From a virus: a stretch of 43,920 bases of DNA. Under the pieces are notes generated by a model. That model ran no database searches. It was not told where the DNA came from and worked only from the letters and a program-made list of their open reading frames with translations. The stretch is taken from IMG/VR virus record IMGVR_UViG_3300031669_000066, positions 1 through 43,920 of that record; one strand, given 5' to 3'. Both the position numbers and the translations under genes were made by a program. Of this stretch, positions 3,079 to 41,406 are shown one piece after another. The stretch's first letter is position 1. The number at the start of each line of letters is the position of its first letter.

Positions 3079-3118
3079 TTATTTGCGTGTGTTACTCCGG
3101 AGTAATACAGGCTAATAA
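3079..3118. repeat. Palindrome family copy 1 (core TTACTCCGGAGTAA 3092..3105)
   Basis: ttatttgcgtgtgttactcc|ggagtaatacaggctaataa; 17 of 20 arm positions complementary; intergenic. Confidence 0.95.
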
Positions 3119-3277
3119 TCATTGCCTCCGCCCCCATCCTACCAACCAGCCGGCCACAGCAGATTAAAGGCTCCGCCTACTGGAGATCGTTGCGTTAGTA
3201 TAACCATGCCAGACGTATTTGTCAAGAGGCCCACGCACAGTTTTCAGCCTCAACCGCCATCTCTGACCGCTATCCCC

Positions 3278-3303
3278 AACCGCCACTGCCAACCGCCACT
3301 GCC
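3278..3303. repeat. Tandem 13-bp direct repeat aaccgccactgcc x2, plus ctgaccgctat x2 at 3263 and 3315
   Basis: Read directly in the ORF-free segment. Confidence 0.8.
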
Positions 3304-3382
3304 AATCGCTATCACTGACCGCTATTACCAGTACCTGTTGGCAGTCTCCGGTACTGTTAGTTCTTACTTAAGGGGCAGTTCA

Positions 3383-3419
3383 TGGTGGGCATTGTGGCGC
3401 GTGGTGGGGCATTGGCGCG
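3383..3419. repeat. Imperfect 18-19 bp direct repeat (tggtgggcattgtggcgcg / tggtggggcattggcgcg)
   Basis: Read directly; followed by the G-rich stretch ggagggtagggtggtgg, which recurs at 5229..5250. Confidence 0.7.
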
Positions 3420-3615
3420 CATGGTGGAGGGTAGGGTGGTGGACACAGGATAGCGTGGGTTAGCGCGTGTTTGGTGGTGTTTTGCGGTATGGTATGGTGT
3501 AGATTGGCCGCGTGTAGTGCCGCGTGTGGGGTTTAATTCCGTCGGGAATAGTAGGGTGAGGAGAGAGGAGAAAACCGCTCAAAACGGATTATAGGGGGTT
3601 TGGTGTGATTGGAGA

Positions 3616-3655
3616 TTATTTGCCCGTATTACTCGGGAGTAATGCACGCAAATTA
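3616..3655. repeat. Palindrome family copy 2 (core TTACTCGGGAGTAA 3629..3642)
   Basis: ttatttgcccgtattactcg|ggagtaatgcacgcaaatta; lies 16 nt beyond the T-run of the 3673..3703 terminator. Confidence 0.95.
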
Positions 3656-3672
3656 CCAAACCCCCATCAGCG

Positions 3673-3703
3673 AAAAAACCCCGCACAATAGCGGGGCTGT
3701 TTT
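3673..3703 (-). terminator. Rho-independent terminator after the 3728..4318 gene
   Basis: Minus strand CCCCGC-tattgt-GCGGGG followed by TTTTTT; 25 nt after the stop codon. Confidence 0.75.
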
Positions 3704-3727
3704 GGGGTGCTCCCCCTCACGGGCGGT

Positions 3728-4318
3728 TTATTCAAGATCGTCAAGCTCCCCGAGCAATTCCGCGCCGGTATCATCCGCACCTTTACTCATGAGCCGCGCA
3801 ATAATTGTGGCAATCTCGGGCACCTTCCGCAATGCCGCGCGTTGCTCCTTGGTTTTGCTCTCCACGAAAATACGGGTTTTCTCCTCGGGCAGGTTTTTGA
3901 GTTCGGCCAATGCCATGATGAGATAGTCATCCGCCGTGATTTTAGCGGATGCGCGGCTCTTGTTGTCCCAGCTCGGTTCCGTGGGATTCGTGAGTCGCTC
4001 AAAAATTGCCAGGACGGCATTGTATTTGTCCTCCACGGATGCGCTTTTTCCCGTGGTTTTATCCCGTGGGATTGCGGCACCGTCCTGCAATTTGGCGCGT
4101 AGGCGATCTATCATGGCGTATTGCCGAATACCGGGATCGAGTTTGTCCGAATCCAGTACGATGGTTTTACCATTGGCGAAATTGAGGGTTAGGATGCCCC
4201 CCTCAATATTGGTCTCCACGTCTTTTTTTGGGGTAGCTGGCGCGGTAGTGGTCATGGTAGCGGCCTCGTTGGTTTTTGTGGTTGGTTTGGTTGCGGTAGT
4301 TTTCGCGGTAGTGGTCAT
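3728..4318 (-). CDS. Hypothetical protein (196 aa), paralog of 41483..42082; Thr/Ala-rich N-terminus, acidic C-terminal tail
   Basis: Aligns by eye with the 41483..42082 product (GGILTLNFANGKT / GGITLRLDFVNGET; RAALRKVPEIATIIARL / KLALRGAPGISAIISRI; DDTGAELLGELDD / VDTAALLGELE). Confidence 0.75.
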   Translation of the reverse strand: MTTTAKTTATKPTTKTNEAATMTTTAPATPKKDVETNIEGGILTLNFANGKTIVLDSDKLDPGIRQYAMIDRLRAKLQDGAAIPRDKTTGKSASVEDKYNAVLAIFERLTNPTEPSWDNKSRASAKITADDYLIMALAELKNLPEEKTRIFVESKTKEQRAALRKVPEIATIIARLMSKGADDTGAELLGELDDLE

Positions 4319-5581: not shown

Positions 5582-5722
5582 TTCTCAACCCTCTCCTAGA
5601 CTGAGCTCTTTGGTTTCTCCTACCTGCTCTTGATTGCTGAGAAGGTCTGGTACTTTTTTCAGTTATTTTTTGCTGCTGCTTAAGGGGGTGAGTAATGGAC
5701 GTGGAAAGGGTAGGCAGAGGGA

Positions 5723-5762
5723 TTATTTGCCTGCATTACTCCAGAGTAATACGAGCACGAAA
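5723..5762. repeat. Palindrome family copy 3 (core TTACTCCAGAGTAA 5736..5749), in the leader of the plus arm
   Basis: ttatttgcctgcattactcc|agagtaatacgagcacgaaa; right outer arm degenerate; 89 nt upstream of the ATG at 5854. Confidence 0.95.
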
Positions 5763-5853
5763 CCATCCTTGCGAACTGCCTCCTAGCCCCTTCCCTTCCC
5801 CCTTTTGATCTGTTATCTTCTTCCTATTAGCAATAGAAACCAGAGGCACTGCC

Positions 5854-6210: not shown

Positions 6211-6704
6211 TGGGTGGTGATTCCGCTAACTTGCCAGTACCCTTGTACACCCCTGATACAATGGTGCAGCTGATTCTCGCTAATCCCTCTTGGGGCAAGG
6301 CACAACTCGCTAAGTACTTTGGCAAGCCTGAAGGTTGGTTCTCCTCTGTGCTGGCTTCGGAGCGCTTCCAGCAAGCTCTTGATCCCTACAGAGCTAACTT
6401 ACCTGATCCCTCTCTTACCGCAACAATGGAAGAGCGGGTGAAGGCAATGGCGATTCGAAGTATGGATGTGCTCTTGAATAAGATGGATTCTAAGGAAGCT
6501 TCAGACCTGCTCGTACTGAAGGCGGCAGAACTCGGTATCAAGGGTCTTGGCATGGGGCAGATTGAAAGGACTAAGCCCCCTGAAGCCCCTACTGGCACCG
6601 TAGAGACACTTGCAGAGAGATTAATAGCTGCGCTGGAACGGCAGCGTATTAATGCACTTCGTTCTGAGCCTATTGATATAACTCCGAAGGAGCAACTCCA
6701 ATGA
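6210..6704 (+). CDS. HTH DNA-binding protein, small-terminase candidate (paralog B)
   Basis: Aligns with paralog A over about 100 aa (MVQLILANP / MIDLILQEP; GWFSSVLASERF / GWVSRILASDSF; ERVKAMAIRSMDVLLN / ERVAGITIRSLDIINN); ATGA-type overlap. Confidence 0.6.
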   Translation: MGGDSANLPVPLYTPDTMVQLILANPSWGKAQLAKYFGKPEGWFSSVLASERFQQALDPYRANLPDPSLTATMEERVKAMAIRSMDVLLNKMDSKEASDLLVLKAAELGIKGLGMGQIERTKPPEAPTGTVETLAERLIAALERQRINALRSEPIDITPKEQLQ

Positions 6705-6958
6705 AAGGAAAATTACTTTGCCTTCCAAATGCCTCTGTAGAAGCTATTGAAAAGGGGGGAGAGAAGTCTGCACTGGAAATGTGTCAGGAGGCTTTACAAA
6801 AGAGTGGGGAAGAAAGATTGCAGAATGTATTGATCCTTGGATTCGATGAGCAGGGTAACTTTCTGGTCCAAGCTTCAGAAAATACTTCCATATCTCACAG
6901 TGCATTACTGCTGACACTCACTCAAGCTTATTTAGCGACTGCTTATAATGGCAGTTAG
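6701..6958 (+). CDS. Hypothetical protein (85 aa)
   Basis: Overlaps both neighbours; no motif recognised. Confidence 0.55.
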   Translation: MKGKLLCLPNASVEAIEKGGEKSALEMCQEALQKSGEERLQNVLILGFDEQGNFLVQASENTSISHSALLLTLTQAYLATAYNGS

Positions 6959-8411
6959 CCTCACTCCAGACCTCATCGAGGCTTTCTCAGCGGCCTATCT
7001 TTCTGCAGGCTATGATGATGCTAAACCCACCCCACAATTCCATAGGAACAGCTGGGCACTCTATTGCAGTGAGGTAAAGCAAGCAGCTGTAGCAGCCCCT
7101 CGTGGCCACGCCAAGTCCACCGCCCTCACACATGATTACGTCCTGGCCAGCGTGCTCTTCGAAGTTGATGACTACGTTATCCTTATCAGTACCAACGAAG
7201 AACTCGCCATTGAGCACCTCGGGGATATAACCAGGGAACTCGTCGAGAATGAGGACATTATCACTGACTTCAAGATTAAGGGCTTCGTCACGAATTCGAA
7301 GACTGAAATCATTGTGGAGATGGGAGATGGCCATCAGTTCCGAATTCTCGCACGAGGCTCTGGTCAGAAGATGCGAGGGAGAAAGTGGCGGGGGAGTCGT
7401 CCCGGCCTGATCGTATGCGATGACCTCGAAGACGACGAACAGGTCGAAAACAAAGAGCGCAGGGATAAGTTCCGACGCTGGTTCTTCCGAGCGGTAAAGC
7501 CAGCACTGCGCAGAGGGGGCAAGCTTCGTATTCACGGTACAATCTTGCACGAAGACTCCCTTCTCGCTCGCTTAATGAAAGACAACGAGTGGCAGACGCT
7601 TTTCTATAAAGCTCACAAATCCTTCGATGACTTTTCTGAAATCCTTTGGCCGGAGCAGTTCTCTGAGGAAGACCTTCGAAGCATCCGACAAGGCTTCATT
7701 GAGCAGTTTGACTCCTCTGGCTACTCTCAAGAATATCTCAATGACCCATTTGATAATACTGAAGCTTACCTCAAGAAAGAGTACTTCATCCCAATGGAAC
7801 CTGAGGATTTCGAGCGACCTGTCTGCACTGTTGTAGGCATCGACTTTGCCATTTCCAAAAAGGATAAAGCCAACCGTACCTCAATGACTGTAGCTGGGCA
7901 GACCGATGAAAACGTCCTCCTCTTCTATGATCAGCATGTTGATCGCTGGGCTACTGATGAAATCATTGAAGAAATGTTCATTATTGAAGAAATGCACGCT
8001 CCCTATTGCTTTTTCGTAGAGGACGGGGTAATTTGGAAAGCAATCGAGCCGATCTTGAACCAGGAAATGATGCTTCGTGAGAGGTTTCTGAACTGCATTC
8101 CTGTTAGTGCCATGCGGGACAAGGCTACGAAAGGCCGGAGTTGGCAGAAGCGGATGAAAGCTGGGGCATGCAGATTCGATAACGAGGCACACTGGTATGC
8201 AGCTTACGAGCATGAATGCCTACGCTTCACAGGGTATAGTGATGCTGTACTCGATGACCAGTTTGATTCCTCAGCCATTATTAGCAGGGGTGTGGATCAG
8301 CTCCCCCTGCAGGATGAAGAAACCTATATGGATGAGGATGAACTGTATCAGCGTGGCCACGGCCCGGCCCAGTATATTGACAGCGGACGCTCAGGTACCA
8401 CAGGGTACTGA
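6948..8411 (+). CDS. terL: Terminase large subunit
   Basis: Walker A-like AAPRGHAKST, Walker B LIVCDDLED, nuclease-domain acidic motif VVGIDFA; size and position. Confidence 0.9.
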   Translation: MAVSLTPDLIEAFSAAYLSAGYDDAKPTPQFHRNSWALYCSEVKQAAVAAPRGHAKSTALTHDYVLASVLFEVDDYVILISTNEELAIEHLGDITRELVENEDIITDFKIKGFVTNSKTEIIVEMGDGHQFRILARGSGQKMRGRKWRGSRPGLIVCDDLEDDEQVENKERRDKFRRWFFRAVKPALRRGGKLRIHGTILHEDSLLARLMKDNEWQTLFYKAHKSFDDFSEILWPEQFSEEDLRSIRQGFIEQFDSSGYSQEYLNDPFDNTEAYLKKEYFIPMEPEDFERPVCTVVGIDFAISKKDKANRTSMTVAGQTDENVLLFYDQHVDRWATDEIIEEMFIIEEMHAPYCFFVEDGVIWKAIEPILNQEMMLRERFLNCIPVSAMRDKATKGRSWQKRMKAGACRFDNEAHWYAAYEHECLRFTGYSDAVLDDQFDSSAIISRGVDQLPLQDEETYMDEDELYQRGHGPAQYIDSGRSGTTGY

Positions 8412-8427
8412 GACATGATTATCACTA

Positions 8428-10719
8428 TTGCAGGTAGAACTAATGCGCACATACGCTGAATCTGGGGAAGGTGGAGTGAAGCTGGCACTTGAGGAGATTA
8501 TTAAGTCTTCCAATGTGGCCAAGAGTATTTCAGAGGATCTCCTGGATTCTGTTGGGATGACTGTTTCTTTGGGATACCGTGCTGACGTTGCTTCCCGAGA
8601 GGAATGGGAACAGCGCATGGAGAAGGCAATCAAGCTTGCCCTGCAAGTTCAAGAGAGTAAGAGCTTCCCCTGGCAAGATTGCAGCAATGTGAAATTCCCT
8701 CTAGTGACCATTGCGGTACTGCAGTTCCTCGCCCGTATCTCCCTGATGACAAAAGGTTCCAAGCTCGCAAAGGTCAAGACCATCGGCAAAGATCCCCTGG
8801 GAAAGAAGTCCCAGATTGCCTCACAGATCTCCGAACACCTCTCACTGCAGCTCGCGGAGTTTAGTCCGAACTGGGTTGAAGAGGATGAGCAAGCCAAACT
8901 CGCTGCAGCTATCCTCGGAAGCGCTTTCAAGAAAACCTACTATGATGCAATCTCCGGCCAAGTGATCTCAGAACACATCCCTATTGCGAACTTCGTCGTG
9001 GATTACTATACCAAGGATATTGCAAAGGCTCGCCGTGCAACTCAACGTATTTTCATGTCAGGTAATGATATTCAGGAACGGGTAGCCAGCGGGATCTTCC
9101 TTGATGTAGGGGAAGAGGTTCTTGCCGGGGCCGCAGATCCTACCGTGAATTTCCTGCAGCAAGGAACAAATGAAGCCGAGGGTATCCGCCCCATGAGGGA
9201 AGAGTCCTTCGCAATGTATGAAGTGTTGGAACAGCATTGCTGGCTTGATCTGGACGGCGATGGCTATGAGGAGCCTTATGTTGTCTCAGTACTGGAGAAA
9301 AATTCCAAAGTCCTTCGTATCCTGGCGCGCTTCACTGACACTGGTGACGTGCATCGGGTGAACGACACCGCAGTGCAGCAGCTTGAATCAATGGCAAAAG
9401 AGAGCGAGGATGTTAAGCGGAGTTCGTCACTGGAACGACAGGCAGAGCGACTTGATAAAGCACCAGACAATCATATCATTAGAATTGACCCAATTCAGTA
9501 CTTTACCCGATACTTGTTCATTCCAAGCCCTGATGGTGGGATTTATGGCCTTGGCTTTGGCTCCTTGCTTGGCCCCCTGAATGAATCCGTGGATACGCTT
9601 GTCAATCAGCTCATCGACTCCGGTACAATGGCGAATACCGCTGGCGGTTTCCTGGGGCGTGGTGTGAAGATTAAAGGGGGTGTAACGAGCTTCAGCCCCT
9701 TCGAATGGAAACCTATTGACTCTCCAGGTGCTGACATCCGTCAGAATATCTTTCCATTGCCCGTGCGTGAGCCAAGTAACGTGCTCTTCCAACTGTTGGG
9801 ACTTCTTGTCTCTTACAGCGAGAAGGTGGGATCGTCAACTGATATAATGACTGGTGTAAGCCCAGGTCAGAACACCCCGGCAGAGACTTCTCGTAATACT
9901 GTTGAGCAGGGCATGATGCTCTTCAGTGGAATTTACGCTCGTATGTACCGCTGCTTCCGAGGGGAGCTGCAAAAGTTCTATCGCTTAAACCAATTATACT
10001 TCCACTCCTCACCGAATTTCTTCGAACTCACCCAGAGTGAGAATGCAATCATCAGCAAAGATGCCTACTCTGGCGAAAGCTTCTTCATCTACCCTGCAGC
10101 AAGCCCAGATGCGGTCAGTCTCACCCAACTTCGGGAGAAAGCTGCGATGCTGGTGAAGCTTGCGCAAGTTGAACCCGGCTTTAATCGCTATCTTGCAGTG
10201 CGGAAGATGCTTGAAGCGTATGACTACGAAGACATTGATCAGCTCTTCCCAGATCCGAAGGGGCCAAATCCAATTGCCCCTGTAATTCCGCCGAAGATTC
10301 AGATCGAGCAGGCTAAGCTGAAGCAGTCCCAGCAAGAACACCAAGACAATATGACCTTGGCCGTTGCGAAGTTGCAAGAATCCATCAAGGTCAGTGAGGC
10401 TACGATTCAGGAACTGGAAGCGAAAGCCGCAATGGAGATGGCCAAGGCCAATGGTACTGAAGTTGGGCACCAACTGGCCCTTCTGGACGCACAAATTGGG
10501 GCTGAGAAGTCCCATAAACAGAGTTTGATGGATGCCGCTGAGCTTATGCACAGGGTAAACATCGACCACCAGCAGCTTGCATTAGCTAGAGGCAAGCAGC
10601 ACCACGAGCAACAAGCTCACCAACCGTCAGGAGCAATAGAGAATGGCAACAGTAACAGCAACAATGCAGCGGGAATGGGCACAGAACCCAGTAACCAAGG
10701 AGTTCCTCAAGTCCCTTAA
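8428..10719 (+). CDS. Portal protein (763 aa; start uncertain, TTG 8428 or ATG 8443)
   Basis: Immediately follows terL; size; long helical Gln/Ala-rich C-terminal extension like podovirus portal barrels. Confidence 0.8.
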   Translation: MQVELMRTYAESGEGGVKLALEEIIKSSNVAKSISEDLLDSVGMTVSLGYRADVASREEWEQRMEKAIKLALQVQESKSFPWQDCSNVKFPLVTIAVLQFLARISLMTKGSKLAKVKTIGKDPLGKKSQIASQISEHLSLQLAEFSPNWVEEDEQAKLAAAILGSAFKKTYYDAISGQVISEHIPIANFVVDYYTKDIAKARRATQRIFMSGNDIQERVASGIFLDVGEEVLAGAADPTVNFLQQGTNEAEGIRPMREESFAMYEVLEQHCWLDLDGDGYEEPYVVSVLEKNSKVLRILARFTDTGDVHRVNDTAVQQLESMAKESEDVKRSSSLERQAERLDKAPDNHIIRIDPIQYFTRYLFIPSPDGGIYGLGFGSLLGPLNESVDTLVNQLIDSGTMANTAGGFLGRGVKIKGGVTSFSPFEWKPIDSPGADIRQNIFPLPVREPSNVLFQLLGLLVSYSEKVGSSTDIMTGVSPGQNTPAETSRNTVEQGMMLFSGIYARMYRCFRGELQKFYRLNQLYFHSSPNFFELTQSENAIISKDAYSGESFFIYPAASPDAVSLTQLREKAAMLVKLAQVEPGFNRYLAVRKMLEAYDYEDIDQLFPDPKGPNPIAPVIPPKIQIEQAKLKQSQQEHQDNMTLAVAKLQESIKVSEATIQELEAKAAMEMAKANGTEVGHQLALLDAQIGAEKSHKQSLMDAAELMHRVNIDHQQLALARGKQHHEQQAHQPSGAIENGNSNSNNAAGMGTEPSNQGVPQVP

Positions 10720-10891
10720 GGATGATCGGGAAGCGGCGAAGGAAAGCTGGGCGGCGGAGCAATTTGTCGCTGCAACAGCAGAAGGTACGATGATGCAGAA
10801 TGCGGCAGCGCTTGGCGGTGTTCGTGTGCTGGATCAGATTATCGAGAATCTGGAAGCATTGAGCAATATTGAAGAAGGAGAAGAAGCATGA
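10643..10891 (+). CDS. Hypothetical head-module protein (82 aa)
   Basis: Overlaps the portal 3' end in another frame and overlaps the next gene (ATGA); acidic C-terminus. Confidence 0.5.
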   Translation: MATVTATMQREWAQNPVTKEFLKSLKDDREAAKESWAAEQFVAATAEGTMMQNAAALGGVRVLDQIIENLEALSNIEEGEEA

Positions 10892-11292
10892 GTACTGACG
10901 CACACACTCCTGAGCAGATTCCAGCAGAAGGTGAAAGGGGCTGGCGCGCCTCCAAAGGTCGCGTAGAAAGCAATCGCAGCGGTTTCCGAGCTTGCGGCCA
11001 CCGAGTCCTTCTTCTTGGTGCGCAGCTGGAAGAAACCACTGCTGCGGGCATCGTGCTCCTCTCCAAGACTGCAGAGGCCGAACTCAACCATTCAGTCATC
11101 GCAACGGTTATCGAAATCGGCCATGATGCCTGGAGCGATAAGAGCACGGACTTTTGCAAAGTCGGGGATCGCGTCCTTGTTGGTCAGTACGTGGGTAAGT
11201 TCCACACCTCTGAGGTTGATAAGAAGACTTATCGCTTCGTGAATGACCTTGACATCATCACAGTACTCGAAGCCCCTGAAGTTGCTGGATAG
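10888..11292 (+). CDS. GroES/Cpn10-like co-chaperonin
   Basis: By-eye alignment with GroES: [26 protein letters not shown] / [37 protein letters not shown] / [21 protein letters not shown] / ESDILAIVE. Confidence 0.65.
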   Translation: [134 protein letters not shown]

Positions 11293-11335
11293 TTGCCAGT
11301 AAGGTGTGCGCAGAGTAGTGTTAATTTTAACGGGG

Positions 11336-11375
11336 AAAGTTGCCTGTATTACTCTAGAGTAACGCAGGCTAGTAA
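11336..11375. repeat. Palindrome family copy 4 (core TTACTCTAGAGTAA 11349..11362)
   Basis: Between the GroES-like and scaffold genes; 25 nt upstream of the ATG at 11400. Confidence 0.95.
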
Positions 11376-11399
11376 CTCCCAGAGCCAGAGAGATATATC

Positions 11400-12302
11400 A
11401 TGCCTATTGATCCAGTAGAACAAGTCCGACAATTGAGCCTTGACCTTGGGGTGCAGGATGACCCGGCTCCAGCAGATGCAGGAGAAGATGAAGGTACCGC
11501 AGCCGCCCCCCAGAGCAATGGTCGGAACTATGAATCCGAAGCCATCTCCAAAGGCTGGGTTCCAGAGTCGGAATTCAAAGACGACCCTTCCAAGTGGGTG
11601 GATGCAGAAACCTTTGTAAAGCGCGGTGAACGCTTCAACAAGAACCTGCAGCGTGAGGTAGCAGAACTCAAAGCTACCATCGAGTCCTTCAAGGGTACGC
11701 AGGCGAAGGCTGTGAAGTTCTACGAAGAGGCCATTGCGCGGAAGACGGCAGAAAATGCTGAAACCATGAAGCAACTCCGAATCGCCCGCAGTGAGGCTCA
11801 GCGGAACGGGGAAGATGAGACTGTTGTTGATATTGAAGATCGCATCGAGGCCCTGAAGAAGCAGCAGGCGGAAGTAGAGGCAGTCGAGGCCCCGCAAGGA
11901 CTTGATCCCAAAGCAACAGATCCTACCACCAACCCCATCCTGCAAGAGTGGATCGAAGACGGTAACGACTGGTTCAATGACTACCCTGAAGTTCGGGAGA
12001 TTGCATTAGCCCTCGGTGAGAAGATGGTTGCAGCAGGAGAGAAGGCTCGCGGCCGCCCCTTCCTTGATAAGATCACCGAAGCAATGAAGGTACAATTCCC
12101 ACGGAAACTGGGTAAGGCTAAGGTTGCCAATCCGCAGCGAATTGAGGGAAGCAGCTCGAATGCCTCAACTTCCTCAGTCTCCGTGAATGGCAAGACCGCT
12201 CGCGATCTTCCTGAAGAAGACCAGAAGCTGATGAAGCAATTCATCCGTGAAGGCTGGGTGAAAGATGAAAAGACCTACCTCGAAAGCTACTTCTCCCGGT
12301 AA
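11400..12302 (+). CDS. Scaffolding protein (300 aa)
   Basis: Acidic, Glu/Lys/Ala-rich coiled-coil composition; position between portal and capsid genes. Confidence 0.65.
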   Translation: MPIDPVEQVRQLSLDLGVQDDPAPADAGEDEGTAAAPQSNGRNYESEAISKGWVPESEFKDDPSKWVDAETFVKRGERFNKNLQREVAELKATIESFKGTQAKAVKFYEEAIARKTAENAETMKQLRIARSEAQRNGEDETVVDIEDRIEALKKQQAEVEAVEAPQGLDPKATDPTTNPILQEWIEDGNDWFNDYPEVREIALALGEKMVAAGEKARGRPFLDKITEAMKVQFPRKLGKAKVANPQRIEGSSSNASTSSVSVNGKTARDLPEEDQKLMKQFIREGWVKDEKTYLESYFSR

Positions 12303-14413: not shown

Positions 14414-14465
14414 GGGGAAATTAGCCTGTATTACTCCCGAGTAATGCGGGCAAATAACCCCTTTT
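14414..14465 (+). terminator. Possible attenuator/terminator: copy 5 extended by GGGG/CCCC and followed by TTTT
   Basis: gggg(14414..14417) pairs with cccc(14458..14461), then tttt(14462..14465); downstream of the capsid gene. Confidence 0.4.
14418..14457. repeat. Palindrome family copy 5 (core TTACTCCCGAGTAA 14431..14444)
   Basis: aaattagcctgtattactcc|cgagtaatgcgggcaaataa; 15 nt after the capsid stop codon. Confidence 0.95.
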
Positions 14466-15213: not shown

Positions 15214-15621
15214 ATGGCCAACGTAACCTCTGTCCAGATTATCAACGACGGCAGTCGAAATGTCACGCTGAAGGCGGAAGGGATTCTCGATACAGCTGAC
15301 CTTGCCTCCGCTACTCTGGTTGACCCTGCAGTCCTCTTCGGCATGGATAACACTGGAACAGTTAAAGCTTCTAAACTACGGATTAATCGGATAATCTACA
15401 ACGTAGAAGATGGGCTTTCACTGAACCTTGCCTGGGATGGTGCAACGGCAGCGCGAATTGAGCAACTTACTGGTCGAGGGGACATGAAGTTCCACGACTT
15501 CGGCGGTATTACCAACAATGCCACTACACCGACCGGCAAGATCCTCTACAGTACCCAAGGTTGGAGCGCCGGAGCAATCCTGTCCTATTCCCTGGTACTG
15601 GAAATGGTCAAGGAGCAGTAA
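15214..15621 (+). CDS. Virion structural protein (135 aa)
   Basis: SD GGAGGA; beta-rich composition. Confidence 0.5.
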   Translation: MANVTSVQIINDGSRNVTLKAEGILDTADLASATLVDPAVLFGMDNTGTVKASKLRINRIIYNVEDGLSLNLAWDGATAARIEQLTGRGDMKFHDFGGITNNATTPTGKILYSTQGWSAGAILSYSLVLEMVKEQ

Positions 15622-15622
15622 G

Positions 15623-15766
15623 ATGCAAAAAGGTCGTAAGAATATGCCAAAAGCATCCCCTCCGAAAGAACGGAAAGGTACAGTGATTGTCAAGCGTCAG
15701 GAGATGGCAAACCTGATGATGGGCAAAGGCCACAAACCCCGTTCACGTTCAACCCGTAAGGATTAA
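15623..15766 (+). CDS. Small highly basic protein (47 aa, MQKGRKNMPKASPPKERKG...)
   Basis: Internal ATG of track ORF 15518..15766 with AGGAG 7 nt upstream; begins 2 nt after the previous stop. Confidence 0.45.
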   Translation: MQKGRKNMPKASPPKERKGTVIVKRQEMANLMMGKGHKPRSRSTRKD

Positions 15767-15772
15767 CCTGCG

Positions 15773-16477
15773 ATGGCTACAAGTGGAACTACTATCTTCA
15801 CGATGACCCGTGATGAGATTGCGGCAGCAGCATTGCGTAGCTTGGGAGCTTTTGGCCCTCAGGATACAATTCCTGCTACTGACCTCACCACAGCAGCGGA
15901 GGCTCTCAACATCCTTGTCAAGGCCATGTCGATAACAGAGCTTCCTTTGTGGTGCGTCGATGACATAGCAGTTCCTCTGGTTGTCGGTATCGGCACTTAT
16001 GACTTGAGTGCAGCTACCGGCACCACTTTACCACTTCGTGTTCTGGATGCGTACATTCGGAATGCTGCCGGGATGGATCGCACTTTGCAGATCATTTCCC
16101 GCTACGACTATGATACGCTGGGGTATAAGAACGCTCCAGGTGCTCCAACACAGCTCTACTATGACCCGCAACTCGGCTCTGGGAAGGTCACGGTTTATGC
16201 GGTTCCTGCCTATGCCGGGGAAACTCTCCACGTAGTCCTCCAGCGGCAGATTCAGGACTTCAACCTCTCCACGGACAACCCCGACTTCCCTCAGGAGGCT
16301 TTGCGGATGCTTAAGTGGGGGCTGATGGATGAACTCGCCCTTGAGTACCGTACACCACGGAATGAGAGACTGGAAATTAACCAGCGTGCTTTAAGCTACC
16401 GGCAGCAGTTCGAGGCTTCGCTGCAAGAACAAGCCTCGGTAGTCTTTGTCCCTACAACACGGCAGACAGCACGATGA
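15773..16477 (+). CDS. Head-to-tail adaptor, P22 gp4-like
   Basis: N-terminus TRDEIAAAALRSLGAFGPQDTIPATDLTTAAEALNILVKAM parallels P22 gp4 [39 protein letters not shown]. Confidence 0.6.
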   Translation: MATSGTTIFTMTRDEIAAAALRSLGAFGPQDTIPATDLTTAAEALNILVKAMSITELPLWCVDDIAVPLVVGIGTYDLSAATGTTLPLRVLDAYIRNAAGMDRTLQIISRYDYDTLGYKNAPGAPTQLYYDPQLGSGKVTVYAVPAYAGETLHVVLQRQIQDFNLSTDNPDFPQEALRMLKWGLMDELALEYRTPRNERLEINQRALSYRQQFEASLQEQASVVFVPTTRQTAR

Positions 16478-24122: not shown

Positions 24123-24162
24123 TTACTAGCCTGCATTACTCTAGAGTAATACACGCAAACAA
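24123..24162. repeat. Palindrome family copy 8 (core TTACTCTAGAGTAA 24136..24149)
   Basis: Between the ATP-grasp gene and the tail-fibre module. Confidence 0.95.
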
Positions 24163-24194
24163 CCCTCGCCTCATTCTTAATGGAGGCTTTCCTT

Positions 24195-27125: not shown

Positions 27126-27226
27126 GGGTCGATACCGAGTGCTTGATGTGGTGTTGCCGGGTGCCTTTTTTTATCTGGTAGCTGCATCAACCCACTATTT
27201 TTAACAGAAGAAGTTAGGAGACTTTA

Positions 27227-27514
27227 ATGGAATTAGAGCCACCAAAAATTGACTGGGGATTTTTCTCCGTAGCAGGTCTTTTGGGCTCTCTCATAGGTTT
27301 AGGGCAGTTGCTGAATGCACAGGAAGTCCTTACTTGGAGAGTGGTAATAGGAAGGGCATTAGTATCAGCGGGCCTAGCTGCAATGTCCCCTATAATTTTA
27401 ATTTGGTTCCCTCATCTACCTGTAACTGTTGAGTTTGCGGTTGCGGCAATGTTAGCGAGTCTGGGTACTTCAGGTTTGCAGTTACTCGTACATAAAGCTC
27501 TTGGGAGGGCTTGA
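27227..27514 (+). CDS. Holin candidate (95 aa, three hydrophobic helices)
   Basis: Hydrophobic segments GFFSVAGLLGSLIGLGQLL, ALVSAGLAAMSPIILIWF, FAVAAMLASLGTSGLQLLV; ATGA overlap with the endolysin. Confidence 0.55.
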   Translation: MELEPPKIDWGFFSVAGLLGSLIGLGQLLNAQEVLTWRVVIGRALVSAGLAAMSPIILIWFPHLPVTVEFAVAAMLASLGTSGLQLLVHKALGRA

Positions 27515-30658: not shown

Positions 30659-30710
30659 CCGGGGTTATTTGCTGGTATTACTCTAGAGTAATGAGGGCAA
30701 ATAACCCCGG
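30659..30710. repeat. Palindrome family copy 9 (core TTACTCTAGAGTAA 30678..30691), at the convergence of the two arms
   Basis: ccggggttatttgc...gcaaataaccccgg, outer 14 bp perfectly complementary; followed by tttatttt. Confidence 0.95.
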
Positions 30711-33692: not shown

Positions 33693-35078
33693 TCAAGCTC
33701 CTTTCCCTAGCATGTTGAGGAGTTCGCTGCCGAGGTTTGCGCCTTGTTGCTGGATTGCGGCGGTTTCCACGTCAAGGTTCTGAGCACGCTTGAGGCAGAT
33801 ACCGTAGGATCCTGGATTCATTTCGATTGCGACTGCTTTGCATTGGAAGCGGTGTGCAGCGGGGAGGATGGTACCCGTGCCTGCGAAGGAGTCCAGTACC
33901 GTATCTCCTGGACGGACGCTTCTTTGGAGGAGATTCTCAAAGAGGGCAACTGGTTTCTGCGCGCCATGCTGAAGTCCGGAGTCCGCTGTTGTAGTAATAA
34001 CGTCAGAGTAAATGGCGGTGGTTTTCTTGTGCCCCTTGATTGCGTAGAGTAATACTTCATACTGCCTCCGGGGGCCTTCGTCGGGTAAGGGCACTCGGCC
34101 AGAGCCGGGCTTAGTGCAGATAAACGGAGTACGGAAAACGTACCAGCCAGCGGCCTTCATCATCTGACCGAGTTCATGGAAGTTCGCAATATCGCAGAAA
34201 ACGTAGGCATGAGCTTGGGACTTGGCAACCTTGAAGGCCAATGGGCACCATTGCAGCATAAGAGCTTTCCAGCTCTCGTAGTCATCTTTGTACTGGTGAG
34301 TGTTGTTAGCTAACCTGCCACCTCCACCATCCCCGAAGGAATCTGCCCCCATACCATACGGAGGGTCGGTAAGAATTACATCAAACTGCTCGGGATCAGC
34401 GGCATTCATCCAACTGAGGCAATCGGTGTTGTGGACTTGGTGGATGCTGGAGTTGAAGGTCTTGCCTACTGTCTTGGCCAGCTCTACATTCTTCTGGGCA
34501 ATTTCCTGCCGCTTGAGGATCTTGAACGCCTCGTCAGAGGTCTTTGCTTTTGCGATCTCTGGATTGTCAAGGTGCCGGGAGACGATGATATCCTTGCGGA
34601 GGTTTTCTTGGAAAGAGCCATTGCTGCGGCCTTTGAGTTCCATTGCGGTGTCTGCAACGGTATGGATGCGGCCTTCAGCTTGAGCCTGTGCGCTGCGAAT
34701 CCGGTGGAGTTTGGCTTTAGCTGCTGCGGACTCCTGCCATGTAAGGTCTTTGCGGTGCAGGTTTTCTTCCAGCTCCGCTTCTTCGGCATCCAATGGAGAG
34801 AGTTGCCCCAGGGTGACGTAAGGGATCATGCCTTCAGGTACAAGCTCGTCGTTGTACTTGAAAACACCCCCGAGCATCCAAAGATCAGTGATAGCCCGTA
34901 ACCGGCGTTCCCCCGCGACAAGGGTGAGGGTTTTGTCCTCTTCTTCTCGGACTACAATGGCATGAAGCAATCCCTTGGTTTTGATAGTCTCCACCAGCTC
35001 CATGATGGCGACAGGGTCAAATTCCTTGCGCTGGCGATCGGCGCCAATATTGATCTTATTTATATCAATGAGTTGCAT
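33693..35078 (-). CDS. ParB-like nuclease domain fused to an N6-adenine/N4-cytosine DNA methyltransferase
   Basis: N-terminal ParB-N-like LVAGERRLRA; MTase motif IV ILTDPPYGMG followed by motif I VLDSFAGTGT (beta-class order). Confidence 0.8.
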   Translation of the reverse strand: MQLIDINKINIGADRQRKEFDPVAIMELVETIKTKGLLHAIVVREEEDKTLTLVAGERRLRAITDLWMLGGVFKYNDELVPEGMIPYVTLGQLSPLDAEEAELEENLHRKDLTWQESAAAKAKLHRIRSAQAQAEGRIHTVADTAMELKGRSNGSFQENLRKDIIVSRHLDNPEIAKAKTSDEAFKILKRQEIAQKNVELAKTVGKTFNSSIHQVHNTDCLSWMNAADPEQFDVILTDPPYGMGADSFGDGGGGRLANNTHQYKDDYESWKALMLQWCPLAFKVAKSQAHAYVFCDIANFHELGQMMKAAGWYVFRTPFICTKPGSGRVPLPDEGPRRQYEVLLYAIKGHKKTTAIYSDVITTTADSGLQHGAQKPVALFENLLQRSVRPGDTVLDSFAGTGTILPAAHRFQCKAVAIEMNPGSYGICLKRAQNLDVETAAIQQQGANLGSELLNMLGKGA

Positions 35079-35169
35079 TCTGGTTTCCCATGTAAAGAAT
35101 GAAAATGAAAAAAGCCAGCTCGGTTAAGGAGCTGGCCTGTCTAGGAGGTGGGAAGCTCAGGCCAGTGGG

Positions 35170-35616
35170 TTAGGCTTTTGCAACACCGCGAACTTCGGCG
35201 TAGGTATTTTCACCATCAATGCGGTGCTTCACTACGATCTTGGCGCTCATACCAGGGAGCATGGAGAAGGAGAAGGCTTCCTTGGGATCGTTCTTGCCGA
35301 TGGCTTCACGGAGACGGCCCAGGCCAACATTCTTGCCTGCGGAAGTATCGATGCCGCCGGCTGCGGTGAGGTCGAGCATAATACCTTGGCGAACGGTAAC
35401 AGTATCACGACCGAGGGCAGCTTTGACATCCGGGTCTTCCACGAACCAGGTTACATCCAGAGACACTCCGGACTTTGTGCCATCTTTAGACTGCCACTGA
35501 CGGGCGTCAACTTTATCAATGATGCCGAAGAACTCGCCTTCAGGGACTGGGATAACGACGGTATCGTTTGCGCCTTGGACTGATGCTTGGAGGAAGGTAT
35601 CAGGATTGAATGACAT
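35170..35616 (-). CDS. Putative ssDNA-binding protein (DUF669-like, partner of AAA_24 ATPases)
   Basis: Size, beta-rich composition and synteny next to the Sak4/AAA_24-like ATPase; assignment by context. Confidence 0.45.
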   Translation of the reverse strand: MSFNPDTFLQASVQGANDTVVIPVPEGEFFGIIDKVDARQWQSKDGTKSGVSLDVTWFVEDPDVKAALGRDTVTVRQGIMLDLTAAGGIDTSAGKNVGLGRLREAIGKNDPKEAFSFSMLPGMSAKIVVKHRIDGENTYAEVRGVAKA

Positions 35617-35667: not shown

Positions 35668-35715
35668 GAGTAGATTGTCACATGAGGGGTCAGTGTGCAA
35701 AGGGTTTTTTAACAG

Positions 35716-35755
35716 TTATTTGCGTGTATTACTCCGGAGTAATACGAGCTAGTTT
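35716..35755. repeat. Palindrome family copy 10 (core TTACTCCGGAGTAA 35729..35742)
   Basis: Starts 6 nt after the ATPase stop codon; shares the upstream tttaacagttatttgc context with copy 12. Confidence 0.95.
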
Positions 35756-35760
35756 GGGCT

Positions 35761-36970: not shown

Positions 36971-38008
36971 TTACTTCTTCATCATTTGTTGCAGTTCATT
37001 GTTCATTTCATCAGATACCAGCAGCTCTCCTGCTGCTCCTGCCGCCTCTGGCGCACCCGCTTCCCGCACATGCCCCCATGCAGCTTCGTACTCCGCCACG
37101 GTAACTTCCTTCCGTTCCAGTGGATCCCAGACCCGTTGCTGAAAATTCACCGGTAGCCAGTTCTCTGGGGTGGAGGACTTGCACACTTGCACCAGTGGGC
37201 ACCCACCGTAGTCTGTGCAGGAGCCGTCTAAGTTATAATCCCAGTATCCTTCTTCCCACATCTTCTTCATCCGTTCAATGTCACGGACTGTCTGATCATG
37301 CCAGCGTTCAATCTCATATGGGCTGCGATTGGTACTAATCTCAAGCGTGTCGTACTTGGTCTTAAGAATTGACACCCCACGGATCAGTGCCCCATTGGCC
37401 TTAACTCCGTGCTGCGCGAGTGCCCAGATATAGCCGGTAAACTGTGAGCGCATTTCCCACTGCCGACCCCAAGAGGCTCCGAGGGATGAAGTGGTCTTAT
37501 CGTCGTAGACATAAATTCCACCAAGGCGGTGTGCAACCATATCTGACCGACCCGTGTAGAGAATGGGGCTGCCTAAGGTAGGATGGGCAACGGGGAGCGG
37601 TTCTGCGAAGCTGAACTCGATACCTCTACCCCCTCCTGGAAGGGTGATTGGTTCCGCACCGTCAGCGCCTAATGGATAGTTGGCGAAGTAGAATTCCAGC
37701 GCGCCGCACATCCTCTCAAGCGATTTGGCGGAATCAGATGGGCACTGGAACTCGCCGTATTCCTTAATGAGCTTGACCATGCCAGCGCCTTCTGCATCTT
37801 CTTGGCCCATACCGTTGATGTAGAAAGCTTCTCGGGAAGCTTCCAGGCCGGAAGCGAATGCCTTTCCTGCTACGAGGTGTACAGATTCGGACTTGGGCTT
37901 CCAATGTTCAATATACTGCCGGAATGCTTTTTGGGGGCAAGCGCGGAAAGTGCTAAGGATGGTGCTGTCGATGGTTGGAGGGAATAAGGGGCGAATTGCT
38001 GCCGTCAT
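36971..38008 (-). CDS. PD-(D/E)XK exonuclease with Cas4-like Cys cluster
   Basis: GRSDMVAH...IYVYDDKTT (D...DxK), N-terminal Cys (FRACPQK) plus C-terminal CTDYGGCPLVQVC. Confidence 0.75.
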   Translation of the reverse strand: MTAAIRPLFPPTIDSTILSTFRACPQKAFRQYIEHWKPKSESVHLVAGKAFASGLEASREAFYINGMGQEDAEGAGMVKLIKEYGEFQCPSDSAKSLERMCGALEFYFANYPLGADGAEPITLPGGGRGIEFSFAEPLPVAHPTLGSPILYTGRSDMVAHRLGGIYVYDDKTTSSLGASWGRQWEMRSQFTGYIWALAQHGVKANGALIRGVSILKTKYDTLEISTNRSPYEIERWHDQTVRDIERMKKMWEEGYWDYNLDGSCTDYGGCPLVQVCKSSTPENWLPVNFQQRVWDPLERKEVTVAEYEAAWGHVREAGAPEAAGAAGELLVSDEMNNELQQMMKK

Positions 38009-38338: not shown

Positions 38339-38563
38339 TTACAAACCTTCCAACTCATCAAGCAGTGCTCCAGTATCTACTGGTGCCGCTGCCACCTTTG
38401 CCGCCGATTTCGTTGCGCGGCTCCCTTCACTGCGAGTGTTCGCAAAAAGACGTTCTTTGCGGATCGCGTCAATTGCAAGCCGCATCTCAGCCGGAGTAAG
38501 GGTACCTTCCGCCGCTTTCTGGCGCCAGATCTGGACGCTGTGGGTTACTACTTCGCTTGTCAT
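38339..38563 (-). CDS. 74-aa protein homologous to the C-terminal module of the 3728 and 41483 paralogs
   Basis: TLTPAEMRLAIDAIRKERL...VDTGALLDELEGL versus KTPAQKLALRGAPGISAIISRIE...VDTAALLGELE; starts 18 nt after palindrome copy 11. Confidence 0.6.
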   Translation of the reverse strand: MTSEVVTHSVQIWRQKAAEGTLTPAEMRLAIDAIRKERLFANTRSEGSRATKSAAKVAAAPVDTGALLDELEGL

Positions 38564-38581
38564 GATTACTGTGTCCTGTCG

Positions 38582-38621
38582 TTAGTTGCCCGTATTACTC
38601 TAGAGTAATACACGCAAATTA
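38582..38621. repeat. Palindrome family copy 11 (core TTACTCTAGAGTAA 38595..38608)
   Basis: Between the helicase stop (38650) and the 74-aa gene start (38563). Confidence 0.95.
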
Positions 38622-38649
38622 CCCCTCAAAGCCTCAGATTGCAACACCC

Positions 38650-39945: not shown

Positions 39946-39975
39946 AATGGATTTCCTGTAAGAGCCGCGCTCTTG

Positions 39976-40266
39976 TTAGAACTTTAGGGGATGGTTAAGA
40001 ATGACGCAGGACATAACTACTGCACATGTTGAATACCCACGGAAGAAGGCATTGGCAACGGGTAAGAAATCTTCTATGGTTGATGCAGCAACCTGTGTCG
40101 TCATTGTAGTTGTTTCTACGACTGCAAAGATCCCCTCTTTATGGATAACAGCGAACTGTGCTGGAACAATAGGGTTTACGTGCCCACGTGATAAAGATCT
40201 TGAGGACTTCTCAATCGTTTGATTCAGGTCTTCTGTAAACTCGCGTAATTCTGAGAGATTATCCAT
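39976..40266 (-). CDS. Hypothetical protein (96 aa from MDNLSEL...)
   Basis: Track ORF 39976..40347 trimmed to the ATG at 40266 with SD-like GAAGGGGAAG upstream. Confidence 0.5.
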   Translation of the reverse strand: MDNLSELREFTEDLNQTIEKSSRSLSRGHVNPIVPAQFAVIHKEGIFAVVETTTMTTQVAASTIEDFLPVANAFFRGYSTCAVVMSCVILNHPLKF

Positions 40267-40462
40267 TGGAGGCTTCCCCTTCTGGTTGCGGTTTCGGCTC
40301 AAAGTACTCCCGGAGAAGCTTGGTGAAGAATACCTGCTGCGCACCAAAGGGGATCTTCCCTTCCAGCTCCGAGTAGAGTTCTTTGTCCATCAGTTCGCAG
40401 AGATCAGCTGGAATTGAGATATTCCGGCTAACACTCTTGATGGTATTCTTAGGTCTGGCCAT
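40259..40462 (-). CDS. Ribbon-helix-helix (Arc/CopG-like) DNA-binding protein
   Basis: N-terminal basic arm plus beta-strand KSVSRNISIPADLCELMDK followed by two helices; 67 aa. Confidence 0.55.
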   Translation of the reverse strand: MARPKNTIKSVSRNISIPADLCELMDKELYSELEGKIPFGAQQVFFTKLLREYFEPKPQPEGEASNG

Positions 40463-40668
40463 TACAAATCTCCTGTGATAGTGAGTAGGTCAAAGATGAA
40501 GTCCGGCTCCATGCCGAGTTCTTCCAGGGTGTATTCAGGATGTGGGCTTTCATCCGCAATTTCCCGAATATAGTTTATAGCTTCGTCTGCTGTCAGAGCT
40601 TCTCGATACATGATACCCTGCACCAGAGGTAGTTGATAGAGAAGATGGTTTTTGAGGTTATCTGACAT
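40462..40668 (-). CDS. Small acidic protein (68 aa from MSDNLKNH...)
   Basis: Track ORF 40462..40746 begins with TTG and no SD, so the ATG at 40668 is preferred; TAATG overlap with the RHH gene. Confidence 0.5.
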   Translation of the reverse strand: MSDNLKNHLLYQLPLVQGIMYREALTADEAINYIREIADESPHPEYTLEELGMEPDFIFDLLTITGDL

Positions 40669-40774
40669 AATCACATCCAGAGGTAGTTGAAGAAAAGAAC
40701 GTAAGAGAAAAGTATCCCAATGAGCAGCCCCCGAAGGACTATGCAAAGGAGCACAGCGGGCAGGTCTTGGAGCA

Positions 40775-41263
40775 TTACTGCTGGAATCCTAAGGAGGGGA
40801 GACAGTGTGCGCAGTGTTTGACTTGGACGAAAGTCGTCTCCACACTGTGCGGGAGGTCTTTGTAGGGGTCTGGTGAAGATACCCGAGTCCAGCGAAGAAT
40901 CCCTTGCGTCCGATGCTTGGTATGGTGGAAGAATCCTTCGAGGACTTTATGAACTGCGCCACAAGAGCAGGTTACTTCATTCACCTTGGCTTCAATACGG
41001 ATGGAGGTGTAACTCTGCTCCAGCTCCATTGCAGTAACCTCTCGCTGGAGCATTTCCGCCAGCTCCGGATCATCCTGGGTTCTGGCGAGTTCGATGCGCT
41101 TATTCCGAAGCTTGTGCTTCTTCGCAGCTTCCAGCTCAATGTCTGCAAGGAGCATATCAAGATCGCTGAAGTCCATCTCTTCAGCAGTAAGAGGGAGAGA
41201 GAAATCATAAACTGGAGAGTTGGAACCATTGCTTGCTGTAGTCATCATCGTAAATTCCTGCAT
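40775..41263 (-). CDS. Hypothetical protein (162 aa) with CSCG...HCAHC Cys/His motifs
   Basis: First gene after the 41310..41338 promoter; acidic N-terminal half, zinc-binding-like C-terminal half. Confidence 0.65.
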   Translation of the reverse strand: MQEFTMMTTASNGSNSPVYDFSLPLTAEEMDFSDLDMLLADIELEAAKKHKLRNKRIELARTQDDPELAEMLQREVTAMELEQSYTSIRIEAKVNEVTCSCGAVHKVLEGFFHHTKHRTQGILRWTRVSSPDPYKDLPHSVETTFVQVKHCAHCLPSLGFQQ

Positions 41264-41309
41264 AATTTAGTCAGTGAGCGAAAAGGCGAGATTGCCAATT
41301 CGTGAGAAG

Positions 41310-41338
41310 AGTATAACGCAAACTCGCGCGAATTACAA
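41310..41338 (-). promoter_or_regulatory. Sigma70-type promoter TTGTAA-N17-TATACT
   Basis: Minus strand ctaTTGTAAttcgcgcgagtttgcgtTATACTc; -35 at 41338..41333, -10 at 41315..41310; about 25 nt beyond palindrome copy 12. Confidence 0.6.
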
Positions 41339-41362
41339 TAGACTGAGAGGGGGGATTTTAAC

Positions 41363-41406
41363 AGTTATTTGCCTCTATTACTCCGGAGTAATAGAGGCAA
41401 ATAACT
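41363..41406. repeat. Palindrome family copy 12, a perfect 44-bp palindrome (core 41378..41391)
   Basis: agttatttgcctctattactcc|ggagtaatagaggcaaataact, every position complementary. Confidence 0.97.

Follow-up and report, generated by a model that had tools for sequence, protein, structure and literature searches.

Twelve 44-bp palindromes in the non-coding DNA of an uncultured phage: candidate operators for a co-evolving phage protein

The virus record IMGVR_UViG_3300031669_000066 of IMG/VR (positions 1–43,920; this whole stretch of 43,920 nucleotides, nearly all of a 43,982-bp metagenome contig, is hereafter called the window) carries twelve copies of a 44-bp palindromic element built around the core TTACTC-NN-GAGTAA. 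Such a locus raises the question of whether the element is read as DNA or as RNA, by which protein, and to what effect. Of the explanations considered here, a set of operators has the strongest support; the RNA reading fails the test that had been set for it.

The core pattern TTACTCNNGAGTAA has exactly 12 matches in the window against a mean of 0.00 in 100 dinucleotide-preserving shuffles, and a scan with a 46-column position weight matrix built from the 12 copies found no thirteenth site in the window. This bears out the first-pass annotation, made from the sequence alone, which had listed twelve copies with an exact core at these positions. Each copy is laid out as a 44-bp dyad consisting of a 15-nt arm, TTAC, N6, GTAA and a second 15-nt arm; the window consensus with its flanks is GGTTATTTGCCTGTA-TTACTC-NN-GAGTAA-TACAGGCAAATAACC. 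The central dinucleotide is CG in four copies, TA in four, GG/CC in two and CA/TG in two, exactly as previously counted. Copy 12 (41363–41406) is indeed a perfect 44-bp palindrome (22/22 pairs), and the outer pairing of copy 9 is perfect as claimed, over 15 pairs rather than the 14 given earlier. Copy 7 is the most degenerate, with 14 of 24 Watson–Crick pairs. Arm position 11 is C or G on either arm and is mismatched in 8 of the 12 copies. In '+' strand coordinates, and in any transcription direction, the left arms match the consensus at 169 of 204 positions and the right arms at 146 of 204 (raw counts).

Non-coding DNA, in a gene map checked against relatives, makes up 8.4% of the window and holds all 12 elements, an arrangement with a chance probability of about 1e-13. 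The earlier statement that no copy lies inside an open reading frame (ORF) thus stands: the sole overlap, of 4 nt, is that of copy 7 with a mechanically assigned TTG start at 22666, and the ATP-grasp gene located there likely starts at 22720 (MNILIID...).

No Rfam family matched in the window, and the 48-nt consensus had no match in 50,697 phage records. When 185,579 bacterial and archaeal species, each represented by a single genome, were scanned with GTATTACTCNNGAGTAATRC, six single matches came up, none of them with arms (the host of the phage is not identified). The motif had been put forward as undescribed, which holds against all three collections, and the species genomes contain no multi-copy chromosomal family that would make it a host repetitive extragenic palindrome (REP) or miniature inverted-repeat transposable element (MITE). 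The element is previously undescribed, real and strongly non-random.

Its distribution was followed through relatives of the phage. Megablast of the terL–portal region (6948–12000) against phage records gave no match, and the best TerL match among these records by tblastn reached 39.5%. Metagenomes contain more than 3000 TerL relatives at E ≤ 1e-20. Scans of IMG/VR yielded no relatives with TerL peptides and chance single matches alone with the 14-base core. We examined 80 loci from soil, peat and freshwater metagenomes, together with loci from an exact protein look-up, using an architecture scan (44-nt window, TTA at 16–18, TAA at 27–29, at least 14 of 22 dyad pairs) that gives 0.02 matches per shuffled window. 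It recovered 11 of the 12 copies of the window and revealed families in about 20 relatives with TerL 61–79% identical; further families occur in loci L135, L208 and L210. At least 25 metagenomic genomes of related phages share the architecture, and the complete genome MW202489.1 in GenBank has at least 6 copies of AAAACCGCCGGGTTTAC-N6-GTAAACCCGGCGGTTTT. A relaxed scan produced 128 matches in 414 kb of real sequence versus 19 in shuffled sequence.

Across the clade the geometry is constant (15 + TTAM + N6 + KTAA + 15), with about 6–12 copies per genome, and two blocks are conserved, an outer RGTT and an inner ATTAM/KTAAT at the core. Arm positions 7–14 are lineage-specific: the segment reads GCCTGT in the window, GTGCGC in L115, ACCGCG in L128, GGGCGG in L152, GTAGGA in L121 and GCGCAC in L182, and the longer window-type segment GCCTGTA has the L208-type counterpart TCGTGTGG. 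Close relatives have common motifs, and motif distance correlates with TerL distance (r ~0.8). The places occupied are syntenic. Of 16 loci, 14 have a copy behind the Cpn10-like gene; behind the capsid gene the figure is 13 of 14, and 16 of 25 have a copy about 1.2 kb upstream of terL. At these syntenic junctions the element begins a few to about 50 nt past the upstream stop, and the next start codon is 15–27 nt on; the junctions are retained despite complete turnover of the element sequence. The sites are a conserved and positionally fixed trait of a whole uncultured phage clade with genomes of about 40–47 kb.

Whether selection acts on an RNA hairpin or on a DNA site can be judged from the arms. 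In the window, a copy's own arms form pairs in 79.6% of cells versus 81.9 ± 1.2% when the 3′ arms are swapped among copies, with 495 of 500 such shuffles equalling or exceeding the real pairing, and double-sided changes number 2 against 5.6 expected, a second, separate count concurring. Over 61 elements of 13 genomes, compensated changes amount to 28 versus 37 ± 5 expected, and one-arm deviations to 323. Sense-strand mismatches show no G·U bias (74 G·U versus 91 A·C). No arm position differs between the upstream and the downstream side in 70 elements (all p > 0.1), and two directional kinds of outer arm ('type A / type B'), which L128 had seemed to show, found no support over these 70. Between genomes, the number of double-sided changes rises to 66 versus 28.7 expected, a value reached in none of 500 shuffles. 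Each arm thus stays near a genome-specific consensus, independently of its partner arm. Since the arms track this consensus while symmetry between genomes holds, the element is best understood as a symmetric protein-binding DNA site and not as a selected RNA hairpin. The first-pass annotation had offered hairpins of the RNase III type as one hypothesis, to be given up if the arms lacked covariation in conserved DNA; this is the pattern found here, again with no sense-strand excess of G·U. The spread in predicted hairpin stability, from −9 to −31 kcal/mol per copy with 3–8 mismatches among 24 stem positions, fits graded operator strength better than selected structure.

Our best explanation, which we hold to be about evenly balanced between right and wrong, is that the twelve elements are symmetric operators through which a co-evolving phage protein acts on transcription where two units meet. 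A phage-encoded, oligomeric, sequence-specific DNA-binding protein would recognize the 44-bp dyad sites, its specificity co-evolving with them, and once bound would act on transcription across gene-module junctions. It might serve as a roadblock or insulator between units, or as a repressor or activator beside an adjacent promoter, in a manner akin to stoperators or to the conserved inverted repeats (CIRs) of phage phiC31. A genome-wide operator set had also been proposed in the earlier annotation and is favoured by the independent deviations of the arms, the lack of polarity and the co-divergence with lineage at conserved positions.

Because the motif changes wholly between phages with TerL still ~78% identical, the reader is probably encoded by the phage rather than by the host. 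Two proteins of the window had been suggested as binders. The winged helix-turn-helix protein at 1444–1683 is an unlikely reader, as none of 39 related loci contains a homologue of it. The second, a 67-amino-acid (aa) protein of the '-' strand (40259–40462) whose N-terminus is basic and whose residues 10–16 form a hypervariable, strand-like segment, is our best candidate for the trans-acting factor. It had been called a ribbon-helix-helix (RHH) protein. It is conserved wherever the element occurs, and the RHH fold is unconfirmed, the resemblance lying in the sequence pattern only (an alternating strand followed by a P-E-D-L helix start).

Relatives have a common early module of two paralogous proteins of about 200 aa and the 67-aa protein. 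MW202489.1 and L210 possess a different terminase, yet keep the element, the 67-aa homologue and both ~200-aa paralogues, which places the element with the early module and not with the structural one. The 67-aa family comprises 507 representative homologues with a conserved scaffold (M-x-R-P ... L-P-E-D-L ... S-E-x-E-G-R-V-P-x-G-A), in which residues 10–16 alternate between hydrophobic and hypervariable. Variants of this strand go together with variants of the site: SRNIS in the window and L207 with TTTGC-YSGTA-TTACTC, YKNIG in L208 and FKNIG in L210 with ACTCG-YGYG-RATTAC, an R-x-G group with ACCGSG, and Q-x-N-x-S with GTAGGA. Motif distance correlates with the distance of the 67-aa protein (r = 0.84). 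The correspondence is suggestive of a DNA reader and is confounded by phylogeny. Copy 12, the perfect palindrome, stands ahead of the operon that encodes the 67-aa protein; the idea, suggestive of autoregulation, that the best palindrome always lies upstream of the candidate's operon is true of the window and does not hold in general.

The paralogous early proteins (3728–4318 and 41483–42082, both '-') are 34% identical, and each is followed by a terminator and then by a palindrome. They have more than 500 metagenomic homologues and also occur in MW202489.1 and Microcystis phage Mel-JY34, on which a literature search found no paper. No Pfam family matched them. Their AlphaFold model (predicted local distance difference test, pLDDT, 80) consists of a five-stranded N-terminal domain and a helical C-terminal domain. 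As binders they were set aside, with no sequence or fold match in PDB and unnamed homologues only in BFVD. Their C-terminal motif D-T-x-A-L-L-x-E-L-E recurs in a 74-aa protein (38339–38563). An alternative candidate for a DNA-binding regulator is the 157-aa product of the first operon gene after copy 12 (40775–41248, '-'), which contains CxC...CxxC, a possible zinc ribbon; the early region of MW202489.1 carries the annotation 'ogr/delta-like zinc finger'.

Placement of the copies bears on how a bound protein might act. The '-' strand gene 3728–4318 is conserved in relatives, hence the '-' arm extends to ~5380, past the earlier limit of about 2909, and has copies 1 and 2 inside it. Copy 1 (3077–3120) lies about +70 to +113 nt downstream of a promoter-like site (3225→3197, match 11/12), and copy 2 (3614–3657) lies 19 nt past a bidirectional intrinsic terminator (3677–3698) that ends gene 3728–4318. 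Copy 3 (5721–5764) precedes the first conserved gene in the '+' (packaging/structural) operon by 89 nt and corresponds to the position upstream of terL in the relatives. Copy 4 (11334–11377) separates the Cpn10-like gene (end 11292) from a 300-aa gene (start 11400), and copy 5 (14416–14459) lies 12 nt past the stop of the major capsid gene (14403), with the next ATG 25 nt on. Copy 6 (22446–22489) begins 2 nt past the stop of a 1034-aa gene, upstream of a promoter-like site (22548–22575, match 10/12), and copy 7 (22626–22669) falls between this site and the ATP-grasp gene. Past the ATP-grasp stop (24042), copy 8 (24121–24164) ends 15 nt short of the next gene (24180). Copy 9 (30663–30706) sits where the '+' and '-' arms converge, and a T-rich run comes after it. 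On the '-' arm, copy 10 (35714–35757) comes 3 nt after the AAA_24 stop (35761), with 97 nt between it and the downstream gene 35170–35616, and copy 11 (38580–38623) occupies an 86-bp gap between the superfamily 1 (SF1) helicase gene (end 38650) and the 74-aa gene (start 38563). Copy 12 is situated 13 nt past a terminator (41420–41454) and 24 nt upstream of the −35 hexamer of a promoter-like site (41338→41310, match 9/12) that precedes the operon encoding the 67-aa candidate.

The module map drawn earlier from these copies is partly wrong. They do not delimit a 'leader' from a 'packaging' unit, as copies 1 and 2 flank a gene-free iteron stretch of ~490 bp within the '-' arm. Nor is every module boundary marked: this was an overstatement, since six gaps of comparable size (2330–2463, 15621–15773, 27125–27227, 35078–35170, 42082–42245 and 42649–42909) have no copy.

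The two classical terminators noted beside copies 2 and 12 are real and separate from the palindromes, and terminator-like hairpins follow the post-capsid copies in L128, L130 and L132; for this reason the palindrome itself is not regarded as a terminator. A terminator scan called none of the 12 copies, and T-rich tails follow copies 5 and 9 alone, as the annotation had stated in setting the copies apart from ordinary intrinsic terminators. These tails are not conserved at syntenic copies. Sigma-70-like sites are not more frequent in the window than expected by chance, a few strong ones lying near copies, and only 4 of the 12 copies are close to promoter-like sites. The distance from dyad to promoter varies, from upstream to downstream (measured with the sigma-70 consensus, which may not be that of the host). 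A promoter embedded in the palindrome was discarded, as the hexamer spacings misfit sigma-70 and no scan match falls inside any copy. Copies 4, 5, 8 and 11 end 15–25 nt from the next start codon. The common denominator appears to be a position between two units, on either side of any promoter, which would suit a roadblock or insulator and equally an operator with repressing effect at some sites and activating effect at others.

Several points weigh against operators read by the 67-aa protein. Promoter placement is inconsistent, with copies 1 and 7 downstream of a promoter-like site, copies 6 and 12 upstream, no room for one at copies 4, 5, 8 and 11, and copy 9 at the convergence point. A near-continuously conserved site of 44 bp is long for a simple dimer. 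The phage is apparently lytic, with no integrase, repressor or RNA polymerase found, and its need for genome-wide operators is unexplained. Every copy can form some hairpin (−9 to −31 kcal/mol), and gene conversion among copies could mimic the tracking of a consensus. The proposed binder is a candidate protein only, put forward by inference. Its partial Mantel value of 0.37 is similar to those of several structural proteins and does not discriminate between them. Neither Pfam nor PHROGs assigned the 67-aa protein to an RHH family, and PDB profiles matched weakly (CopG-family RHH at E = 0.9, EndoAI at E = 0.3). The AlphaFold model has a pLDDT of 67, with the N-terminus modelled as a helix, and a Foldseek search with it gave no match. 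Finally, L169 and Mel-JY34 carry 67-aa homologues without a detectable element.

Other explanations must be set beside the operators. Dispersed protein-binding sites with a non-transcriptional task, be it a centromere- or partition-like one or genome organisation (compare KorB OB, N15 sopC and parS), replication (priming or an accessory part at the origin), site-specific nicking or module-exchange recombination, would agree with the same sequence evidence for a symmetric site at the DNA level. Such a role could find a place in the iteron region flanked by copies 1 and 2, a candidate origin with a similar layout in L115, in the canonical parS-like palindromes in the early region of L182 and L143, in the ParB_N–methyltransferase fusion that the phage encodes, and in the lack of any recognized primase in scans of the window. 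Plasmid RK2 supplies a precedent, its dispersed OB palindromes being targets of KorB, a protein of the ParB family (PMC11790492), and the ATP-grasp cassette, lying with its promoter-like site between copies 6/7 and 8, is an anecdotal hint of recombination boundaries, the third hypothesis of the first-pass annotation. We nevertheless regard this explanation as unlikely: the junctions after the Cpn10-like and capsid genes are kept over deep divergence, which points to a local role there; the motif is unrelated to parS or OB; neither ParA nor a canonical ParB with a helix-turn-helix was found in the window; and the methyltransferase fusion recurs in Mel-JY34, a phage without the element. As regards recombination, the insertion by which the only close relative, L207 (81–88% identical), differs lies away from the palindromes. 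RNA hairpins of ~20 bp acting as RNase III sites, 3′-exonuclease barriers or factor-independent attenuators, comparable to the T7 RNase III sites or to REP-stabilised mRNAs, seem quite improbable to us, although all copies are transcribed intergenic palindromes whose consensus arms would form a ~20-bp stem, as long as RNase III substrates are, the dyad symmetry persists from genome to genome, T-rich runs follow copies 5 and 9, and the post-capsid site is a classic location for an attenuator or stabilizer. The arms do not covary within genomes, pairing fails at ~20% of stem positions, the weakest copies reach only −9 to −14 kcal/mol, and there is neither polarity nor a sense-strand preference for G·U over A·C. 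The hexamers are invariant while the stem varies, and each genome has a homogeneous set of copies, something that a purely structural role would not require. Moreover, the T-runs are not conserved at syntenic copies, the classical terminators are separate and Rfam gave no match.

Selfish or neutral repeats, spread in the manner of MITEs or REPs or homogenized by gene conversion and devoid of a regulatory role, could likewise be multi-copy, intergenic, imperfectly palindromic and genome-specific in sequence, as in the systems of REPs and their RAYT transposases, and the breaking of assemblies at the element is in keeping with repeats. This account is very improbable in our view, for the same junctions are occupied in most relatives despite full sequence turnover, which argues for long-term retention and not repeated invasion, the 44-bp geometry is rigid across the clade, protein scans detected no transposase or RAYT-like gene, and nothing comparable occurs in the 185,579 species genomes. 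Acquisition of a REP-type family, or of bacterial interspersed mosaic elements (BIMEs), from the host chromosome is scarcely credible. It would explain a general resemblance to REPs as extragenic imperfect palindromes and nothing else, the six single matches among the species genomes all lack arms, and every related phage carries its own version.

Symmetric operators remain the explanation that we prefer, and among known regulatory sites they would appear to work most like stoperators, while not belonging to the stoperator family. The stoperators of Cluster A mycobacteriophages (L5, Bxb1) are 13 bp long and have been proposed to block elongation at junctions. Like the present element, with its 12 copies over 43.9 kb, they occur in many dispersed copies that are mostly intergenic and mostly off promoters. 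Their motif consensus differs among related phages, with distances that correlate with genome and repressor distance (PMC6550527), and the present motif diverges with lineage in the same way (r ~0.8 versus TerL). However, stoperators are asymmetric and oriented with transcription, whereas the present element is dyad-symmetric, without polarity and 44 bp long. They are read by the monomeric two-domain immunity repressor of temperate phages (PMC9283540). By contrast, no integrase or immunity repressor is recognized here.

The CIRs of phiC31, with which the names of Ingham et al. 1994 and Wilson et al. 1995 are associated, are reportedly bound by the phage repressor. Like the present sites, they are said to be symmetric, highly conserved inverted repeats dispersed over many intergenic regions of early and late operons; they reportedly measure ~17 bp in a temperate siphovirus with a known repressor, whereas here 44 bp comprise a core and a lineage-specific segment. 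The 17-bp palindrome of Cluster O mycobacteriophages, TGTTCGGNNNCCGAACA, has more than 30 copies, a third of them inside ORFs, and is unchanged across five Cluster O genomes (PMC4351075). It shares with our element invariant inverted hexamers or heptamers about a variable centre, copies throughout the genome and no orientation to transcription, but the present element is 44 bp long, strictly non-coding, limited to ~6–12 copies per genome and divergent between lineages.

Plasmid RK2 of the IncP group has 12 OB sites, so that here too a dozen dispersed palindromes are found on a mobile genome of ~40–60 kb. Through these palindromes, one protein, KorB, exerts global and partly long-range transcriptional silencing (PMC11790492). 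Unlike our element, OB measures 13 bp and has as its reader a CTPase clamp of the ParB family, and the motifs are unrelated; nor is the present motif related to the 16-bp parS-like palindrome (TGTTNCACGTGAAACA) or to an OB-like one. True parS-like sites are separate. In L182 (5293–5316 and 6935–6958) and L143 (~5145, 6199 and 8495), both with TerL ~66% identical, canonical parS-like palindromes (GTGTTTCACGTGAAACAC and GTGTTCCACGTGGAACAC) stand upstream of terL beside the 44-bp family, and they may recruit host ParB. The only ParB-type gene in the window encodes a ParB_N::N6_N4 methyltransferase fusion (33693–35078), a fusion of the same type as in Mel-JY34.

RNase III sites of T7 are RNA structures and T4 PeSLs are cassettes of a promoter plus a stem-loop, both of them polar. 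They resemble the present element as intergenic, stem-loop-forming sequences at module boundaries of lytic phages, but the latter shows no covariation, no polarity and no embedded sigma-70 promoter. The core geometry TTAY-N6-RTAA is reminiscent of the site of Mu C. For Mu C, the bound sequence is an imperfect dyad of 16 bp with its centre at −43.5 (PMC2582627). The Mu C and Mor sites are, like ours, dyad elements, and Mu's are read by a small phage-encoded dimer; unlike ours, most copies of which have no fixed distance to a promoter, the C sites number only four in Mu, at fixed promoter positions. Pfam scans of the small proteins of the window gave no Mor match.

If the elements are operators, control over an entire phage genome would rest with a single small protein and about twelve sites of 44 bp. 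Metagenomes from soil, peat and freshwater show the phage group to be widespread, and no regulatory element had been described for it. A conserved core combined with a lineage-specific segment would provide a ready-made set of sites, each with its matching protein, of use for studying how DNA-recognition specificity evolves and as a source of orthogonal repressor/operator parts. We also entertain, as a speculation that is probably wrong, a private lineage 'address code': sites of 44 bp with an invariant ATTAC-N6-GTAAT core and a fast-evolving 8-bp segment would be read by the 67-aa protein and would enable an apparently lytic phage to distinguish its genome from those of co-infecting relatives, by a heteroimmunity- or exclusion-like control of transcription or replication, as a symmetric analogue of stoperator immunity outside lysogeny.

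The element can further serve as a marker for recognizing and binning the clade, and it would explain why assemblies of these phages break at particular points. The metagenome contigs of L200 and L207, independent of each other, both terminate within the core of copy 12 (window 41385–41392), so assemblies appear to break at the element.

The window has 51% G+C, and no tRNA genes were found in it. The '+' arm encodes TerL, an SU10-like portal, the Cpn10-like protein, capsid, tail and holin/endolysin proteins and a GARS-like ATP-grasp enzyme; the '-' arm encodes PolA with a uracil-DNA glycosylase (UDG) domain, the ParB_N::methyltransferase fusion, AAA_24, a PD-(D/E)XK nuclease, an SF1 helicase, RNase H and an HNH-AP2 endonuclease. 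Domain scans of the window proteins recognized no integrase, repressor, phage RNA polymerase or primase, and Pfam and library scans detected no Mor/C-family protein, RAYT or transposase.

The gene-free stretch at 3122–3613 (~490 bp), with copies 1 and 2 at its edges, contains six tandem 13-bp iterons at 3251–3330 (CAACCGCCACTGC / TGACCGCTATCMC) and the strong sigma-70-like site 3225→3197; C predominates in the left half and G in the right. A structured RNA in this stretch (3122–3612) was ruled out (z = +1.3), and we take the stretch for a candidate replication origin. L115 has a like layout at 6258–7456, gene-free and bracketed by palindromes. The GARS-like ATP-grasp gene (likely 22720–24042) has its own promoter-like site at 22548–22575, with copies 6/7 and 8 on either side, and the unit 22446–24164 resembles an inserted, insulated cassette. 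An insertion of ~930 bp is present in the PD-(D/E)XK nuclease gene of L207 (3665–4592), relative to window positions 37444–37447. The HNH-AP2 gene (920–1444, '-'), which resembles a homing endonuclease, lies within a variable early block.

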